Positions 6,217 through 37,637 of a DNA stretch of 64,000 bases are shown here, piece by piece. The position numbers were made by a program, and so were the translations under genes. Within the stretch, counting starts at the first letter, position 1; each line of letters opens with the position of its first letter. Below the pieces are notes generated by a model that was given only the letters and a program-made list of their open reading frames with translations, made no database searches and had not been told where the DNA came from. The stretch comes from Podospora anserina (lineage: Eukaryota), in assembly GCA_017654855.1 (NCBI GenBank), contig CM030332.1, forward strand, positions 6,758,001-6,822,000, given 5' to 3'.

Positions 6217-9200
6217 TCATCTCAGAACCACCATTTCTGGCGGATATTCCGTGGGCCGCAGCTCACCCAGCATCACTCCATGCACGTAGCAGCCCCCCAT
6301 CAACACATGCTCATCTCCTTCCAAAGGCCCAACTATCGGTGCTTGTTTCCCAGGCTCTCTCAACAGCAGCTCTTGATGTCGCAACGCCGATCGCATAACC
6401 AGCGGCAAAGGGGTGCCCCATGCCATCACAATGCTATCGCCAACCCGACTCCTTGGAGGAACGATCCCGAATCTCCCGCCCTTCGTGACGCAGAAGCTCT
6501 TACCCCCAATCGACCGACCGAGCTCGAAACCGAGCTTCTCATGAGCCTTGCCGTCCGCCTGTCTTTGGTATCCCTTCGCCGTGAGGAGACCCTCACAAGT
6601 AGCCACGTGTTGGAAAAGAACGGACGTGTCCATCGGGGGCAAGGACCCCGTGGCATAATCGCAGAATATCGTCCGGTACAGCGCCTCTACCAATCCATCC
6701 TCAGAGATCGGTTCTTCGCGCGCGAGCGCATCCCTGTGGAGCTGAGCTGCGAAGCTCTTTGCCTCTAGAACGAAGGCACGTATGTTGTTGAAAATGGTTG
6801 TTGGGCGTTGCATCAACTCTACTGCCGTCAAAAAGGGCTTTCCCAGCAATTCGATTTCGTCCACGATAGATAATGAGGCTCGTATGCAATTGGGTCGACC
6901 CGGGATCTCCTCAAAGAGTTTTGTGCCATGCGCACCAGCACTGTATCCAACAGGTTCCATAGCAGGCAGTTGAAACCTGCTCAGTGTCCAGTGAGGCACC
7001 CACGATGGGAGACTCGGCAGTGATGCAGGCGCTTTCCACCACGGCACCCGCCTCATCCATAGCACAATGCACGACCAGGGCGAAGCCGCCCAGATATGGT
7101 CATCAACAACGTCAAGCCCAGATGGCTCGAAGCCCCAGCCGGCGAGACCCAATCGTTCGGCAGGCTCATGGCGACCAATCAAGATGTGCTTGGCACTGTC
7201 GCGCAATAAATCTCCAGCAGGCAGAATCGTGTCGTCGTACTCGATATTGATATGCTGGCGGGTTTCTTGCTGCGTCAGGCCAAGGACGGCATAGATCTTG
7301 TCCTTGATATTCGAAGCCGAGAGGTCCGTTGTCAGGCCAAGCAAAGTATCCAGTGGGAGACGACGGACACGGTCTTGATCCCACTCCTGGCTGACGGGCT
7401 CGGACCGGGGATTTCCTTCGGCGTTCCACCCGGCGACTTGGTTTCGGACCAAGCTCATTACATGGGCTCCTTTGACGCCAAGGATGGTGGTCGGAAAATT
7501 GTACCAAACGGTCCAGAACCCAGGTTCGTGAAGGAATGGCTCACCATCGCTCCCCATCATGAAGTTCACGAGGGGACAGATATCATCCCAGTCGGCTTCC
7601 TCAGCTCCATGCTTTACCACGACCTTTCTCCCCAGGGCTACTTCCTGCAACATCCACATGCGGCGAAAGTATGGCTGCTTAAACAGCTCAATAACTCTCA
7701 GCCAAGTGGTAAGGATCGTCCACGGCCATAGTTCTACCGTGATTCTCTCATATTCGAAGTTGTCCATGGTTTCTGGGTCTCGACAGGCGGTCTTGTTGAT
7801 GAAAGAGAGGGCACCTCGTCCATTGGCCGTACCCCCAACCCAGGCGATGACTTGGCTCGCATTACGGTAGATGGTCCCCATCAACGCAACTTGGTTGGAC
7901 TTTTCATCCAGGTCTTCAACGGAGGCAGGCTTGTCGGCTGACGCGTGTTCATGACCCTGGTTAATGCAGATGGCATCGATCCAGACATACCTACCCCTGT
8001 CCTTGGTCTGCAGGGCGTGAAGAAGCTCAAAGACGGTTCTCGTGACCAAGAAACGCTTGCCGTCAATGACAATGGGAAAGTTTCGTCCTTCATTTCCCCA
8101 CCGGTATGAGATTGCCTCGTATGCTTCCTTGCTGCGGTGCTCTCCTAGCGGTACGCTCACCAGCCAACAGCGAACGAGGTTGTCGCCAGAGATCGGTTCC
8201 AGCCGCAACAGCCTAAACTCGGCGTTGTTGGCGTCAAGAGGCGTGTAAGTGTATTGTTCGAGGCCCCGAGTCTTGAATTTACAAACCAGGCGGACAGCAC
8301 GCGTTCTGACTGAGGCTTCTAGATCAAGAATGAAAACCATAAACCGTCGTACCTCTCGAATAACGGGTCTAGGCCAGTGCGTAACACTCTGGACTATAGT
8401 AGACTGGCAGTTGTACATTTGATGGTAACAAAATCCAGCAGTCAATGCGGAAACCGCGGGCAGTCTGAGCCAAATGCTGGGGAAGATCCAGCGAATGGTT
8501 TCGTAAGTAGCTCGAAGGAACAACGTCACCAGGATGAACGGGGAGGCGGTCAGATACTTCAGCCAGTGTTCCAACTCGAGGTCAAGCGTATACTCCTCGA
8601 CAAGCTTTGCCAGCGGGATCTCTGTGGAAGAGGCATCAGGCCATGTGATAGACGTTGCTTGACGCAAGCCAAGGAGGAAGTGGATGGTGTTCAATCCTCC
8701 TAGCGTGGTCACCAGTGGGAAGATGAGCATGCCCCCAATGGCGCGGTAAAGATCATCTCCAGCGTAGGATATGATTGCATGAACATAGAAATCCAAGGCA
8801 TAGCGTGTCTGCCACTTCGGGCCGAGAAGTTCCCACAACAACAAGTCCCCCGGGAAGGTAATAAGAGCTCTGTAAACATTTTCTCCGATAGTGACCAGGA
8901 CTCTGATGTCACGGACTTTCTTCGGCTCAAGCGGAAGCTGTCTTGGTTGCTCGGGGGCAGGATTGAAGGAGGCCAGGATATTTTGGAGGAACTGCGAGCT
9001 AATCCTGTCGAAGATTGCAGCGTCGATGTAAGGAGGCAGGTCTTCGTGGGACTGGTTTGCCGAGTGCAGTGATTGGAGGAGGAGTTGATACGCAAGAGAC
9101 TGCGTATTCCTCCAGCTCTCTATTTGTCCACTAGATAAGATGTTAGCCAACTGCTCTCGCGGCGCAGCAATCTCGTTGTCGTCGTCGAGGGGGTTGTCAT

Positions 9201-9303
9201 CGTGCTGATCCCCCGGCTGGTCGGATATTTCCGTTGGAGGATGCGATGGGTCATGCGCTTCCTCCTCCTCACTTCCGTTTTTGCTGAGGTGTTCTTCCTG
9301 CAT
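6217..9303 (-). CDS. HET-domain (heterokaryon incompatibility, HET-6-like) protein with N-terminal hydrophobic extension
   Basis: Intronless 1028 aa ORF. HET blocks YEAISYRWG, WIDAICINQ, EKSNQVALMGTIYRNA, YFRRMWMLQEV and DKIYAVLGL. It also has LPSWVP and a C-terminal FCVTKGGRFGIVP..GGCYVHGVM. Confidence 0.9.
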   Translation of the reverse strand: MQEEHLSKNGSEEEEAHDPSHPPTEISDQPGDQHDDNPLDDDNEIAAPREQLANILSSGQIESWRNTQSLAYQLLLQSLHSANQSHEDLPPYIDAAIFDRISSQFLQNILASFNPAPEQPRQLPLEPKKVRDIRVLVTIGENVYRALITFPGDLLLWELLGPKWQTRYALDFYVHAIISYAGDDLYRAIGGMLIFPLVTTLGGLNTIHFLLGLRQATSITWPDASSTEIPLAKLVEEYTLDLELEHWLKYLTASPFILVTLFLRATYETIRWIFPSIWLRLPAVSALTAGFCYHQMYNCQSTIVQSVTHWPRPVIREVRRFMVFILDLEASVRTRAVRLVCKFKTRGLEQYTYTPLDANNAEFRLLRLEPISGDNLVRCWLVSVPLGEHRSKEAYEAISYRWGNEGRNFPIVIDGKRFLVTRTVFELLHALQTKDRGRYVWIDAICINQGHEHASADKPASVEDLDEKSNQVALMGTIYRNASQVIAWVGGTANGRGALSFINKTACRDPETMDNFEYERITVELWPWTILTTWLRVIELFKQPYFRRMWMLQEVALGRKVVVKHGAEEADWDDICPLVNFMMGSDGEPFLHEPGFWTVWYNFPTTILGVKGAHVMSLVRNQVAGWNAEGNPRSEPVSQEWDQDRVRRLPLDTLLGLTTDLSASNIKDKIYAVLGLTQQETRQHINIEYDDTILPAGDLLRDSAKHILIGRHEPAERLGLAGWGFEPSGLDVVDDHIWAASPWSCIVLWMRRVPWWKAPASLPSLPSWVPHWTLSRFQLPAMEPVGYSAGAHGTKLFEEIPGRPNCIRASLSIVDEIELLGKPFLTAVELMQRPTTIFNNIRAFVLEAKSFAAQLHRDALAREEPISEDGLVEALYRTIFCDYATGSLPPMDTSVLFQHVATCEGLLTAKGYQRQADGKAHEKLGFELGRSIGGKSFCVTKGGRFGIVPPRSRVGDSIVMAWGTPLPLVMRSALRHQELLLREPGKQAPIVGPLEGDEHVLMGGCYVHGVMLGELRPTEYPPEMVVLR

Positions 9304-9591
9304 TCTGGTCCGAGTCTGAGTTCACACCGTCAGCGAGCGGGGGGATGGATGCGGAGTCTTGGGGAGGAAAGAATGCGACGCAACGGCGGAGATCACATAT
9401 ACATAAACCTGGAAGCCATGCCTCAGGATGTCGGCTGATTGGAACATGCAGGAAAGCCCAACATTACTTTCTACAGTGCGGCTGGACTTGAACGCAGCGC
9501 TAAACGGATGGGCAGTGCAGGATGCCCTTGGCAGCCCTAGACAGGGGACAATCCGGAGAATCTGTTCCCATTGCCAATAGAAAAAGAACCC

Positions 9592-31213: not shown

Positions 31214-33055
31214 ATGTCCATGATGAGCGACAAACCCAAGCCAGCCGAGCTGCTGAGTGCGGCAGCAGTTGAATCCCAGTCAACAACTCAGCCAGCAACT
31301 GATTTGCCACATGAATCGCAAACAATCAAACCAACAGAAGCAGGAAAAGCACCACCAACCGAGCCATCAGCAGCGCCATCAACCGAACCACCAGCCTACA
31401 CTGACAATCCCTACATCACCAATGGAAATACTAACACTCAAGCTCCCACAGGGGAGATCGACTTCCCCATTCTAGATCCCGGGACTGCCCGTCTCAGAAT
31501 CGAAAACCAGAACCTCTACGCCATGGATCTTGAGCACCAAAACCTCCACGCCCTTCTCGACCGCTTCGTCGTAGACCCAGGCTTCTCCCCCGACGCCCCC
31601 CTCCCAACTTACACCCCACTCGACTCTGCCTTCATCCCCTCCTTTCTTACCCACCTCCCCTCCCTCTCCACCCTCCTCTCCCTCCCCCTGACAACCTACC
31701 CCTCCCCCCCCTACCCCTACTATTCCTCCCGCGACCGGCGCACCATCCACCCCTCCCGCACCAGCTCCCCCTTGGCCGCCTTGGAAGACGAGGACCTCAG
31801 ACGCCGATACCACACCCTCCAACAGCAAATCATCTCCACCTTCTTCCACGCCATCGCCCACGGCAAAAACACCGAGCTCGTCACCCAGTTTGTCAAGTCT
31901 GGTTTCATCTCCCCCGACTGTCCCAACGCACTGGGCGCAACCCCCCTCACGGCCGCCATCGAGGCCGGAAACGGGCAGATGGTCTGTCACTTGATCTCCC
32001 TCGGTGCGCAGGTCAACGGGTACGGGAAACTACCCTCCGGCAGCCTCCGCTACAAGGGAAAGCATGGGGACTTGATGCTCGAGCGGACACCGCTCATGGT
32101 TGCCGCCAAGAATGGGAACCTGGCCTTGGTGAAGCTGTTGGTGGAGGATTTTGGGGCGGACGACGGGATAATTGCTCCGGACGGGCAGCTAGCCCTGCGG
32201 CTGGCGGCGGAGGGGGGGCATAGGGAGGTGGTCGAGTACCTGCCGACGAGAAGGGGGGGCGCGTGGAGGAGGTGGAAGACGCATCACAGTGTTGCTGTGG
32301 AGAGAGTCAGAAAAGCAGGGAGGAAGATTGTGAGGTTTGTGTGGTTTTTTGTGTGGGATCTGCCGAGGTTTCTGGCTTGGAGTGTGCCGAAGCATACGAT
32401 CATCAGACCGGCGGTGAAGACGGTGAAGTATTGCTGGGAGAATAAGGGGCGGTTCGGGGGGTGGGCGAAGAGGCAGGTGAAGGAGTTTCCCGGGAGAGTG
32501 AAGAGGGCGGGCAAGGGGGTTTGGGAGGGGGTGAAGAAGTTGCCGAGGGGGGTTTGGGAGGTGATGAAGGAAATTCCGGGAGTGATGAAGAGTTTGGGGA
32601 AGTTTATCTGGAAGATTGTCAAGAAGATTCCGGAGGTGATGAAGAATCTGCGTATCTGGATATGGACGACGATGAAGAGGATGGGGGTGGCAGTGGGGAA
32701 CGTGTTTTTGAGGGTGGTGTCGGTTCTTCATACGGCTGTGGCAGCTGTGCTGGGTTATTTTAGGAGTATTTCTTTGAAGGATGTATGGAATGGGATCAAG
32801 GCTGTCTTTCGGGCTGTTTTTGTCGGATTGCCAGAGGCAATTTGTAAGGCAGTTGTTGGCTTGGGCAAGTGTGTGGGTATAAGTATTGTCGCCTTGTTTG
32901 GGCTCACAGGGCAGGTGCTGGTTTTCCTGTTTGAAGCCCTCTGCTGGGTGGCCGCATACATCCCGAATCAGCTTGGAAAGATCGTCAGCGCGATATGGGC
33001 GTCGATCTCTAAGGGATATTATGAGATCATGGTGTGGATCAACCCGAAGCATTGA
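31214..33055 (+). CDS. Ankyrin-repeat protein with C-terminal amphipathic helical repeats
   Basis: 613 aa ORF with ankyrin repeats TPLTAAIEAGNGQMVCHLISLGA, TPLMVAAKNGNLALVKLLVE and LALRLAAEGGHREVVEYL. The C-terminal half is K/W/hydrophobic and periodic. Confidence 0.88.
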   Translation: MSMMSDKPKPAELLSAAAVESQSTTQPATDLPHESQTIKPTEAGKAPPTEPSAAPSTEPPAYTDNPYITNGNTNTQAPTGEIDFPILDPGTARLRIENQNLYAMDLEHQNLHALLDRFVVDPGFSPDAPLPTYTPLDSAFIPSFLTHLPSLSTLLSLPLTTYPSPPYPYYSSRDRRTIHPSRTSSPLAALEDEDLRRRYHTLQQQIISTFFHAIAHGKNTELVTQFVKSGFISPDCPNALGATPLTAAIEAGNGQMVCHLISLGAQVNGYGKLPSGSLRYKGKHGDLMLERTPLMVAAKNGNLALVKLLVEDFGADDGIIAPDGQLALRLAAEGGHREVVEYLPTRRGGAWRRWKTHHSVAVERVRKAGRKIVRFVWFFVWDLPRFLAWSVPKHTIIRPAVKTVKYCWENKGRFGGWAKRQVKEFPGRVKRAGKGVWEGVKKLPRGVWEVMKEIPGVMKSLGKFIWKIVKKIPEVMKNLRIWIWTTMKRMGVAVGNVFLRVVSVLHTAVAAVLGYFRSISLKDVWNGIKAVFRAVFVGLPEAICKAVVGLGKCVGISIVALFGLTGQVLVFLFEALCWVAAYIPNQLGKIVSAIWASISKGYYEIMVWINPKH

Positions 33056-33348
33056 GTTTGGTATCATGAATCTCGGGAGTGGGAGGACGGTGGTTATGGA
33101 CCATAGATACCCTTTTTACTTTGCAAAGATTTTTTTGAGCCTCATGTATCATAGCAAGCCTCTCATTGTGTTAATCAGCCCCTATCTCGTTCGCGTCACC
33201 TCCAAATCAACAGTATCAACCCTCCTGTAAACAAAAGCCAACCAACGCCATGGGTATCTGCATGTGGGTATCATTTAATGCAACCGAAACCAATGCAAAC
33301 CACAAATCCCCTGTGTTATTCCTATATCCCCCCAAATCCAAACGCAGT

Positions 33349-34432
33349 CTAGGAACCCTCCTCATCATTCAAATCAGCCCAGTCCAGCCCTGGATAGTAT
33401 GCCAAATCCACCAGCTCGTGCTCACTTCCCTCCGGTGTCGTCAACCTGATCACTGGCGCTCCACCACTAGTGGCCGGGTCGGCCCGAGTGGGGGGCGCGG
33501 AAAGCTTGTGCCAAATGCACTTTGACAGTGTTTCAGCTATCCCATTATTGATCTCGTCCTGCCGCTCCTCGTTATCGAAATCCCGGACAACGCCAAGTTT
33601 TCCATCACAGACGGCTGTCTGGTCGTTTGGGCGGAAAGCAAAGGAGAGGGTGATTCCCGTGCCAGTGGCAATGCCGGTGACGGTTATTGGGTTGGAAGAG
33701 TTGATTGTGTCAGCGGAGGGGGGTTGAATCGTCAACGATCTCGGGTTCAGAGTCTTGTATCTGAAGCTGTTGAAGGTCGGCTTGAAGAAGGGACTCTGAC
33801 TCGGGCTGGCGGTGTTTGTTTGGAGCAAGGGATTGCGGAGTCTGCCCCTGCTGATGGCTGACGACTTGATGGTCCGGTGGAAGATGGCGTGATGGTTGAT
33901 TTGTGAAAGTGTAGTTGTTCTCAAAAGATACCTGAGAAGATCTGTCCTCTTCTGTGGGCTTGTTCTCTGTTGCCAGGGTCTCAGGCTCTTCTCTCTTCTC
34001 AGTCCCGAGAGAATCTTGTGAGAAAGCCTCGGCAGGGCAGAGATGATGCTCGATCCCACACTGACGAGCAACCCTGGGAGCAGTTTCATTGTGGAGGTTG
34101 TCCGGAGGGAGAATCGTCTGTTCCTCATCCGCAGATCCCTGGCTGGTTTCCTCTGTTGTAGGGGGTCGAACATGTCGCTTTTGGACGGTTCCAAAGGGGC
34201 TCTAAGTGCGACCGCATTCTGATGAGCTCCAGGAGTCTTCGTCGCCATACGGAGCTGACTTGGCTACAATCTCGTGAAGCTTGGCCATGTGCGGCGCGCT
34301 TGCAGCCGCCTTCATGTACGCCTCCTTTAGTCGCAAGCAGGCGTCCAGGGCTTCAACGTTGGCAGTTGAGGCATCTGGGGGCGTGGTGGTCGCACGGGGC
34401 TCTGTCGCGGGTGATGAATTGCTGGAGTCCAT
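33349..34432 (-). CDS. Hypothetical gene interrupted by an in-frame TAG (34202-34204) and a probable +1 shift at a C6 run (33718-33723); editing-dependent gene or pseudogene
   Basis: ATG at 34432 opens 76 codons to a TAG. The same frame then stays open for 163 more codons to TGA at 33710. A C-terminal APVIRLTTPEG..LVDLAYY segment lies in the +1 frame ending at 33349. Confidence 0.55.
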
Positions 34433-36008
34433 TTGAGGGTTTCTGTGTGTAGGTAAGCTTGTCGAGATTCGATATGAGAACTTTGTTATGAATTCTCAAG
34501 GTGGATCGAACAAGGCAGAGAACGTTCCTTGTGGAAAGTCAGGTAAGCGGGGAGGAAAGATGGATGAGTTTGAGTGAATAGAAGTGGTTTGATTTGTTAA
34601 AAAAGGTAAAGAGTAAAGTGAGCTGAGTTAAGTAGTCGAGAAAATCTATTTTTTGTCGTGGGTGAATTATAAACCCCGCTCGGCGTAGTTTGGCTCTTGT
34701 TCGCTTTTGTGATCAAAAGTCAATTGTTGCTCCGAACAACCTTCCAGTAACAGTGAAGAGAGATTTCTGAATGAACTATTCATGTGCTAGACCACAACGC
34801 TGGGAGCAGTGGGCATCTCTATCGCTATTTGTGGATCTCTGGTTTGAATTCAAAACCAAAATCACCAAGAGAGAGCAACAACATTGCCTACCCTGACGCT
34901 CCCACCGCCCTAATTGATTTTGTAAAGGTCTCTACAAATATGCGGCACAATAAAGCATCATCTCAGGACACATGATTCCCCCTGCTGTGGCTCAATAACT
35001 CGGATCTAAGGTACGTGACTAAAATTGGGGAAGTGAAAATACCCTGTGGTATTTGGTTTCTATCATGGAGTTATTATCAACACCCCAAAGGCCAGCACCA
35101 AGGTCATGATATCAAAGTCAAAAGGTTTACGCCTTTTTTGTTATAGTACAGATGTGCCTGTTATACCGCCACACCATTGGCACCGTAGACACCAAACAAG
35201 CCGTCCTCCTTAAAGGGCCCCGACCTCTCCAAATATTCACCACGTTACATAACGCCATCACCAAGCCCGCCGTCCAAAGAATGCAAGTAGGAAAACCATC
35301 GGTGGGGTAAATATATAGCCAGGCACCATCAGCAGCAAAATCAAGTTAAGTTGTTATGCGCACGACTGCATATGGGACATAAAAAGCCCAACATCTTCCG
35401 CCCTTCCACGTCCCTGATCATCCCATCATACCTCCTGGCAATATTCCAGACCTTGTACACAACCAAGCTGGCTCATGCGCCTCAAAGCGAACCGTCCATT
35501 GGCTGGGCCTCGAAATATTCCGGCACCATCATCCCATCCATCCCTCCGCTTTTTCTGCAAACACCGAGAAAAAAACGAGTATCTTGCTGCCAGCAGGGTA
35601 TCCCATCCACTGACTTAAACCCGGAAAAAAAATGACACCAAACCCCTTCTCCCGCCTGAGGCGGTGATGATGAAGAACAAAAAAAAAGGATCGCTCTAGA
35701 TAGAGCTGAAGAAAGGTAGAAAGAACAAACTGACCAACTGAATGATTTCCTTTTTTTGAACCCCCTTTCCTTCGCCATCCTCCCATTCCCAGGGGTATTT
35801 GTCACCGGATTGACCCAAAAAAAAAAAAAAAAAGCTACAGGTATAAGGGGGAAAAAAAGGCCACCTTCCATCCCAGACGCACCTCAACTTGAGAAAAGCA
35901 CCCCTGAATCTTCTGTCGACTCGTATACACATACATACATGAATAGAAAGAAACCGCGTCGAAGAGGATACTATGAAACACCGACCCCAAATGTAACCCG
36001 GTCGACTT

Positions 36009-37637
36009 TTATCTGGGGAAAGGCGCCCCTGGTGCGCGTGTGTAAACGGTAGTGCCATTTGGTCGTGGACCTTCGTACTGCACGCCCGTCATAGCCTCAG
36101 GGCCTGCGCCATTGGTTGGCCCATCGAAAGACCGAAGTGGCGGCAGCTCGGCTTGTTGCCGGGCTCTGGCATATTGGTCATTCGCGTAGTGCTCCGACCC
36201 AGGCGGAGGAGGGCCTTGCATTGAGTGACTCTGGCGGTACTGAAGCTCCTGAATCTGACGTCTCATATCCTCCATCTGCGCATCGCGCTTGGTTACCTCC
36301 TCGGCAAGCTGCTGAACATGTGACTGAAGATCTCTAATCGTGTTGGTCTGACGTGTGTGTTCTTGAATGGCTTTGCAGACATTAGCTCTCTATTACAAAA
36401 AGACACATGGTTCCGAAAACAAACCAACCTTTGGTGAGAATCTCCCACTTGGAAGCCTTGGTGCCCCGCTCTTGAGGCATAAGATCCCTAAGCTGCTCAA
36501 AAAGCTCCTTCATCTCCGTACGACGTTTCCGCTCAGCCAGCTTATGGGTGATACGAAGCTCGGGGGTCCTGCTATACGGCTGGCTGCCCGCATGAAGACC
36601 GCCTTCTTCATTCTGCAAATCAGACAACTGCTTGTGCTGCAGAGAGTGATGGTGGGTTGTCGAGTACTCCGAGGTGACCGAAAGCCTCTGGTATTCCGTC
36701 ATGCTGTGGTGGTCTTCGAGTCGACGTTGTCCAGGAGGCAGCCTTGAATCAACTGTGTATTGGCTGCTGGCCAACGATTCGGCAACGCTGCTTCTCCTCG
36801 AGTTTGCCAGGGACTGAGGTGGTCCCGACATGCGTTGAATAGCATTGTCATCTTCGGGAAAAGCCCAGGCCTGACCCTTAGTAGGCTCTGCTGCTCGAGC
36901 AATGAGACTGGTGGTTGGCCCTGTGATGGTTGGCGCAACTCTTCCTCCTCGGGGATGAACTTCGGGTTTGCGTTCTGCGTTTGGTTGATACCCATTGGAG
37001 ATGCGGTTTGTAGCAAGAGAATCGAGGTTGGCACGAGGATGTCTCTGTTGCTGTAGTGTATTCTGGATTGACGACGTCGACTGGTTGTGGCTTGCATAGG
37101 GGGACCCGCTCAATCCCAATTGCCCGAATCCCTGGTTGAACCTGCTATCCACGCTCTCCCTCCGTGACATACTAGGCTCCGGCAGCTCGCCATGGCCAAA
37201 TGTGGCGCTGTTGGGGGCCGACTCCAGCGATTGCGGACGGTCAAAGCGGCGAGGGTCGGCGCTGAGAGGGGTTGTCGGCGACACGATCGAGGCAACGCTC
37301 ATATTACTGTTCGTCGGAGACACGAGTGGCAGCGGGAGGAGGTGGGTCGCTGTTGTGGGCGATGGTGTTTTATCAACGGGCGAGGTTTGGAAACCGGAGT
37401 TTGGTGGGCTAAGGACGCCCAGGCCTGAGCCTGTGGAGTTGTCTGCCAGAGCTATTAGTCCTCTTCTTCTCTCCCCCTCCGTGACCGAGTAGTTCGTTTC
37501 AGCTGGAGCAACATACGCTTGCTAGACACATCTCCGCTTGAGTAGTAGGCAGAGTCTCTGTGGTCTTCAGGTGAGTTCAGCACATTTGTCAGGGCGGCGG
37601 GCCCGAACTTTTGCGAAGGTGGCCGTTGTTGCTCCAT
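36009..37637 (-). CDS. bHLH transcription factor (DevR/Esc1-like), 3 exons
   Basis: LRITHKLAERKRRTEMKELFEQLRDLMP..SKWEILTK|AI across intron 36371-36428. First intron donor GTATGT at 37516. ATG at 37637. Confidence 0.88.

Follow-up and report, generated by a model that had tools for sequence, protein, structure and literature searches.

A young in-frame TAG and a frameshift in an unannotated Podospora anserina gene: probable early gene loss, with RNA editing of the stop as a less likely alternative

Does an in-frame TAG inside a long open frame of Podospora mark a gene that depends on RNA editing, or a gene on its way to being lost? The question arose in a window of 64,000 nucleotides which, judged by its sequence, belongs to chromosome 1 of a member of the Podospora anserina complex, in the order Sordariales. 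When seven ORF translations taken from along the window were looked up unaltered, six proved to be in clusters with named Podospora proteins, among them PODANS_1_18320 and PODANS_1_18410 of P. anserina S mat+ and proteins of P. comata and P. pseudocomata. A minus-strand ATG at 34432 opens 76 codons (MDSS..ECGRT) that are closed by TAG at 34204-34202. The initial annotation had proposed that the A of this TAG (34203) is edited to inosine, and that an orphan gene is thereby translated in full in fruiting bodies only. Next to it, in convergent orientation at 31214-33055, lies the gene for the ankyrin protein PODANS_1_18410, from which 2 of 613 residues differ.

Behind the TAG, 163 further sense codons (SPFGTVQKRH..DDSTPLR) follow in the same frame, here called frame A, before it is ended by TGA 33712-33710. 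This confirmed the coordinates in the initial annotation, which had joined an ORF at 34432-34202 (-) to 163 codons reaching TGA 33710. It had also noted that the continuation has no start codon of its own, and we found no in-frame ATG either in these 163 codons or in the 122 codons that follow them in the reconstructed gene. Frame A is not open by chance, because the probability of 163 open codons at the local base composition is ~0.0025. A second, overlapping and non-coding frame on the minus strand (33352-34263) is stop-free for 304 codons in the window and has been picked up by gene callers as P0007 (299 aa) and P0008 (187 aa). The T content is low here (18%), so that long spurious frames are likely.

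We used the read-through of the frame, with the TAG read as W, as a query and obtained one cluster of ORF calls from public read assemblies. The Podospora-type members P0001-P0005 read ..ECGRTWSPFG.. across the stop, run past the window's TGA as ..DDSTPSADT(I/D)..SSNP.. and end in ..DEEGS or ..YPGLD; the codons behind their Trp, and the stop that ends P0003-P0005, were inferred from the protein sequences. We then searched exhaustively with P0001, without a profile, and 16 representatives reached E<=1e-3. Annotated orthologues were found in Cercophora samala (P0009, KAK0671154.1, 415 aa, 6e-89), Apiosordaria backusii (P0010) and Triangularia verruculosa (P0012), and farther proteins from Phialemonium, Thyridium, Rhypophila and Lasiosphaeria had only the C-terminal block in common. 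The locus is thus no orphan: it has orthologues in three other Podosporaceae-type genera and C-terminal-domain relatives in other Sordariomycetes. Among the relatives found, the family appears to be restricted to Sordariomycetes. Word-index searches of NCBI and UniRef over 30-175, 132-420 and 563-2000 aa gave no Podospora protein, and Podospora was represented by Logan ORF calls only. Since the search over 132-420 aa missed the 52%-identical P0009, a word-index search of this kind would find close relatives only.

Three pieces of the window match the single 415-aa P0009 in order. Its residues 1-75 correspond to 34432-34205 (E 7e-30), residues 78-289 to 34201-33713 (E 2e-16 and 4e-09) and residues 290-403 to 33717-33352, read in another frame (65% identity, E 3e-48). 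The window therefore holds one gene that is broken twice. By these alignments the frame past the TAG is the true coding frame, as had been supposed, and is conserved downstream. We read the locus as one unannotated, intronless gene of ~361 codons at 34432..33349 (-) in the P. anserina species complex (Table 1). Its first ATG, at 34432, is also the first ATG of the span covered by RNA-like contigs, and the N-terminal 76 codons are the sole part that can be translated without bypass of the stop. P0002 is identical to the window across the middle region (33724..34201). The C-terminal domain lies out of frame with the rest of the gene in the window.

Table 1. Coordinates of the features of the locus within the window
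Feature	Position	Strand	Evidence or remark
Minimal 5' untranslated stretch	34433..34605	-	RNA-like contigs X1 record 4 (34041-34605) and X6 record 16 (34413-34605); without ATG
N-terminal 76 codons (MDSS..ECGRT)	34205..34432	-	64% identity with the Cercophora samala orthologue (residues 1-75), E 7e-30
In-frame TAG, codon 77 (Trp in relatives, WSP motif)	34202..34204	-	Candidate editing target A = 34203
Frame-A continuation: acidic middle region, predicted disordered, coding	33724..34201	-	E 2e-16 and 4e-09 vs P0009
Run of six C's: +1 frameshift between middle region and C-terminal domain	33718..33723	-	One C more than X10 (55x) and X6
TGA closing frame A in the six-C allele only, through the extra C	33710..33712	-	
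Conserved C-terminal domain, 122 codons (..DGKLGVVRD..C.WHK..LTTPEG..YYPG.DWADL.DEE)	33352..33717	-	65% identity, E 3e-48 vs P0009
Natural stop codon TAG of the gene	33349..33351	-	P0001 and P0002 end ..DEEGS there

The initial annotation had named another sense codon in orthologues as evidence against editing. All eight aligned relatives that cover codon 77 (P0001-P0005, P0009, P0010 and P0012) have Trp there, and none has another sense codon. The ancestral codon was therefore TGG, and the change was G to A. On the + strand this is C-to-T in CpA; as a single change it is not diagnostic of repeat-induced point mutation. Nor is the TAG a read error, since the DNA run X10 (55x) does not differ from the window at 34203 and since AGA, the reading of the TAG allele in the overlapping frame, is found in the ORF call P0008 (..AVALRAPLE.., 12 public contigs) and likewise in P0007 (2 contigs).

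Of the 321 residues of P0002, 320 agree with the window's reading, and the remaining one is the Trp at codon 77. The longest contig of P0002 is as long (30363) as the longest one listed for neighbour proteins that differ from the window's at 0 of 319 and at 1-2 of 993 residues, which suggests one and the same contig. Strains or closest siblings thus appear to be what separates the TGG and TAG forms. Because P0002, with Trp, differs from the TAG allele at that codon alone, the TAG is very young. It follows that an open frame downstream is the default and gives no evidence of upkeep by editing; the initial annotation had taken this open frame as a sign of editing, an argument that does not hold for an allele one codon away from the Trp form. 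Retention of the stop over evolutionary time, with constraint downstream, was not seen: P0002 has Trp, and so have P0001 and P0003-P0005.

The second lesion lies in a run of C's. At 33723-33718 the window has six C's, compared with five in X10 (55/55 depth) and in the RNA-like X6 contig; P0002, which reads ..DDSTPSADTINSS.., corresponds to five C's. With five, frame A gains 122 codons and ends at TAG 33351-33349. The TGA at 33710 that had been given as the end of the frame is thus present in the window, but it owes its place to the extra C and is not the natural end of the gene. P0007 is the window's six-C form with the TAG and is found on 2 public contigs (short-read assemblies, Logan). For this reason the six C's are unlikely to be an assembly error alone, and the six-C form is probably a real allele, more than an assembly slip. 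A TAG in an otherwise intact ORF is seen only in the five-C form (X10, X6) and not in the window allele. Even if edited, six-C mRNA would not give the full protein, since the frameshift detaches the C-terminal domain and leaves 240 residues only; full translation through editing, as first proposed, therefore does not apply to the window allele. Among the 16 P. anserina-type contigs with public ORF calls, 12 carry TAG with five C's, 2 carry TAG with six and 2 carry TGG with five C's and an identical protein, counts that are not strain frequencies because the same run ids may be counted several times.

The C-terminal domain is the sole part of the protein conserved beyond close relatives. Its block (DGxLGVxRD .. 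C.W .. LTTPEG .. DLxYYPG .. WAD.DDE) is present in the window's 33717-33352 reading, and L263, W268, P287, E295, D303 and Y307 are invariant across 19 sequences. At a cut-off of E<=0.01, Pfam had no family for P0002 or for 10 of the 12 relatives; the 2 weak matches fall short of it, as do all matches of the window pieces, and the ESM Atlas gave no usable match. An AlphaFold2 model from 19 sequences had a mean pLDDT of 37.6 and a pTM of 0.20, with values <50 in the middle region (33724..34201) and of only 50-66 in the C-terminal 70 residues. What this low-confidence model suggests is a helix at the N-terminus, a long acidic and disordered middle and, at the C-terminus, a small unit rich in strands. 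The gene product is acidic, mostly disordered and fast-evolving; conserved in it are a short N-terminal helix and a C-terminal domain of ~90-120 residues. Between sibling lineages this protein diverges by 3.4-5.1%, compared with 0.6-2.3% for three of the four neighbour proteins compared.

Two groups of ORF calls deserve separate mention. P0011 (114 aa, 33352-33660 region) was considered as a diverged paralogue and rejected: in 110 of 114 residues it equals the window with every C read as T, and at its other four residues, where conversion makes the codon a stop, it has Q. P0011 is most likely a protein-collection artefact, namely a contig of a C-to-T-converted (bisulfite-type) library called with TAG/TAA=Q. 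P0003-P0005 (311 aa), which have Trp at codon 77, end just before the Trp codon 33381-33379 (..YYPGLD-W-ADLNDEEGS). Possibly another lineage has here acquired an independent stop of its own, again at a Trp codon of the gene.

We compared the contigs of four runs (X1, X4, X6 and X10) with the window over 32500-35500. No listed run is recorded as RNA; nine are guessed to be so, X1, X4 and X6 among them, and X1 and X6 come from the same study. Two RNA-like contigs, one from each of two studies, span the TAG: X1 record 4 (34041-34605, depth 4.25) and X4 record 10 (34193-34453, depth 2.72). Both have the genomic base at 34203 and no joint, and each has one other letter elsewhere; the X6 contigs do not cover 34203. 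An edited base was thus found in neither of the two contigs crossing the site, contigs being apt to drop minor forms. Since the depths are 2.7-4.3 and minor forms are invisible in contigs, these data leave room for editing. Contigs of runs guessed to be RNA show that unedited molecules exist.

No joints are listed anywhere in 32500-35500 for the contigs of the four runs, and no T>C (+ strand) differences are listed in the RNA-like contigs. Single-base differences are listed at three positions: 34364 (A>G, in the X4 contig alone, at depth 2.7), 34540 (C>T, shared by X1 and X6) and 35170 (C>T, shared by X6 and X10). These are not of the A-to-I type for a minus-strand mRNA and are probably strain differences or low-depth errors. 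Because of the substitution at 35170, X10 is not simply the window's DNA. X1, X6 and X4 have no cover in bins 33207-33307 and 34621-34923, and most contigs break within 33565-33787, gaps that prove nothing. The RNA-like contigs of both studies end at 33336-33351 without a loose end where the DNA run continues, a weak hint that the transcript ends shortly after the stop codon. Another nine runs labelled with this species had almost none of the locus words and are silent on expression.

How suitable is the site for editing? The target A lies in the context GCACUU[A]GAGCCC: both -2 and -1 are U, and positions +1 to +4 read G, A, G and C. Excerpts of PMC9600606 give the preferred bases in Fusarium graminearum as C/U at -2, U at -1, A/G at +1, +3 and +4, and G at +2, with -1, +1 and +3 weighing most. 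The U's at -2 and -1 and the G's at +1 and +3, which had been pointed out from the start, match these preferences; on the F. graminearum scale, then, the site has preferred bases at four of six positions (-2, -1, +1, +3) and depleted ones at the other two (A at +2, C at +4). The same excerpts place >62% of F. graminearum editing sites in predicted hairpin loops (PMC9600606). In a +/-30-nt fold of the Podospora site (minimum free energy -13.8 kcal/mol, z -0.26 vs shuffles), the A lies in a 2-nt interior loop and not in a hairpin loop, a location that is helpful, not obligatory.

Sordaria macrospora and Neurospora crassa belong to the Sordariales, like Podospora. Both are among the species with mapped editing sites, as excerpted from PMC7306014, and A-to-I editing is described as a common feature of Sordariomycetes in the parts of PMC11087585 and PMC10776026 at hand. 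Editing in P. anserina is assumed, not mapped, in the available part of 10.1101/2024.12.09.627484, a preprint with an RNA time course of fruiting-body development in the species. Our literature search found no paper mapping editing sites in Podospora or naming the locus, and the locus names Pa_1_18410 to 18430 gave nothing related.

We consider the locus to be probably a case of early gene loss in the window's strain, through a very recent nonsense allele plus a frameshift. A very recent G-to-A change turned Trp codon 77 (TGG) into TAG and, on this TAG background, a further C would have been inserted in the C run, putting the C-terminal domain out of frame. The alleles would then have arisen in the order TGG with five C's (intact), TAG with five C's (commonest among contigs) and TAG with six C's (window). 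If the stop is not bypassed, ribosomes would yield only a 76-residue N-terminal peptide, with no downstream in-frame AUG for restart, and the frame after the TAG would be open through the youth of the mutation, not through editing-based selection. The two lesions, the ancestral codon and the order of the pieces are shown directly, and from them we infer loss of function and the succession of alleles. Early gene loss is favoured because relaxed constraint predicts just such a further disabling change in a TAG allele. Repair of the TAG by editing in strains with TAG and five C's is a reading that we entertain tentatively and regard as rather unlikely. A sexual-stage deaminase of the Tad2-Tad3-Ame1 type would change UAG to UIG, read as UGG (Trp), in fruiting bodies; these alone would make the 361-residue protein, and vegetative cells would be left with a stub of 76 residues. 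The six-C allele of the window would then be a degenerate derivative with a protein of <=240 residues that lacks the conserved domain. Since the form with TAG and five C's is the commonest (12 of 16 contigs) and has no other lesion, it could still function through editing. The ancestral TGG, the conserved downstream frame and the preferred bases at four of six positions, including -1, +1 and +3, agree with editing, as do a disordered, hypothetical, lineage-restricted protein, the type enriched among the 71 repaired pseudogenes of F. graminearum, and the presence of editing in Sordariomycetes generally and in Sordaria macrospora and Neurospora crassa in particular. The interior-loop position in a fold no more stable than shuffles and the depleted bases at +2 and +4 speak against it. 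So do the two unedited RNA-like contigs across the site (weakly, since contigs drop minor forms), a TAG too young for its open frame to signal selection, a frameshift that arose on the TAG background, and a species for which editing has been assumed and not mapped, as far as the available part of 10.1101/2024.12.09.627484 goes.

Should the extra C be an assembly error, the strain would have a plain gene with TAG and five C's; the frameshift argument would then fall, and the question of young pseudogene versus dependence on editing would be reopened. The difference does lie in a homopolymer run, and the near-identical 55x DNA run has five C's, but the exact six-C reading P0007 (299 aa) is on 2 public contigs, one possibly of the window's own sample, and we regard such an error as very unlikely. 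The slightest of chances goes to avoidance of the stop without editing, by a 49-nt intron (GT 34250 .. AG 34202), by a start in the second frame at ATG 34248 or by ribosomal readthrough. The borders GTATGG..TTAG are present, and the second frame, as found in the window's six-C allele, has no stop between 34248 and 33352 and takes in the conserved domain at its end. The intron, however, would lead into a frame without homology, the X1 contig bridges 34041-34605 without a joint, and no joints are listed at all; because contigs bridge 34250-34202 in this way, it is ruled out as an obligatory intron. ATG 34248, for its part, is the fifth AUG of the covered span, and the middle 177 residues of the second frame are not the conserved frame.

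We return to early gene loss, set against known systems. Editing-corrected pseudogenes of F. graminearum reportedly include PUK1 and AMD1. Excerpts of Qi et al. (2024, PMC10776026) count 71 F. graminearum pseudogenes whose stops are corrected by editing, PSC64 and PSC69 among them. Of these, 71% have disordered regions, 43 are hypothetical proteins and most are Pezizomycotina-restricted, and their TAGs derive mostly from TGG (PMC10776026, same excerpts). The Podospora gene resembles them in its single in-frame TAG from TGG, its conserved ORF and the U before the A, and also in encoding a hypothetical, disorder-rich protein restricted to filamentous ascomycetes. In F. graminearum, by contrast, editing has been measured, and the TAGs go back to ancestral nodes and have been retained across species, as stated in the excerpts of PMC10776026, whereas the Podospora TAG is one codon away from a Trp allele and the window allele has a second disabling lesion. 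Two independent disabling changes, and intact and broken forms among near-identical genomes, are as in ordinary young, segregating pseudogenes among fungal genes that evolve fast and are lineage-restricted. Unlike ordinary nonsense alleles, the stop here is a UAG from UGG after U, the one type that the sexual-stage deaminase of Sordariomycetes can revert, and for this reason loss of function may be incomplete. Stop-loss editing in Sordariomycetes is similar in that UAG is read as UGG after deamination; according to excerpts of PMC13123824 and PMC13684035, those sites are normal gene ends where editing extends the protein, whereas the stop here is at codon 77 of ~361.

If the TAG were edited, it would be the first stop-repairing editing candidate found for Podospora. 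In contrast to Fusarium, where the cases are fixed, it would be accompanied by natural alleles both intact and doubly broken, and would bear on the dispute whether such editing is adaptive, as that dispute appears in excerpts of PMC10776026, PMC13431901 and PMC13684035. A further reading, which we hold to be quite improbable, is the birth of an editing-dependent gene, with TGG, fruiting-body-rescued TAG and unrescuable TAG-plus-frameshift alleles coexisting in the P. anserina complex; were it true, there would be a natural three-allele series on whether repair merely permits harmful mutations or is itself adaptive. If the TAG is not edited, an unannotated gene is added to the Podospora gene set, and the case shows that, where a stop is younger than all other substitutions, the open frame behind it does not testify to recoding.

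Two other genes in the window may be mentioned. The upstream neighbour at 36009-37521 (-) has a motif of the basic helix-loop-helix type (..HKLAERKRRTEMKELFEQLRDLMP..), recognised by eye, and its contig depth is far above that of the gene studied here. At 6217-9321 (-) lies a 1028-aa protein that is named 'heterokaryon incompatibility domain-containing' in sibling species. Fast evolution is expected of heterokaryon incompatibility genes, and sibling-type sequences of this protein differ by 3.7-5.3%, several times the value for most neighbours.
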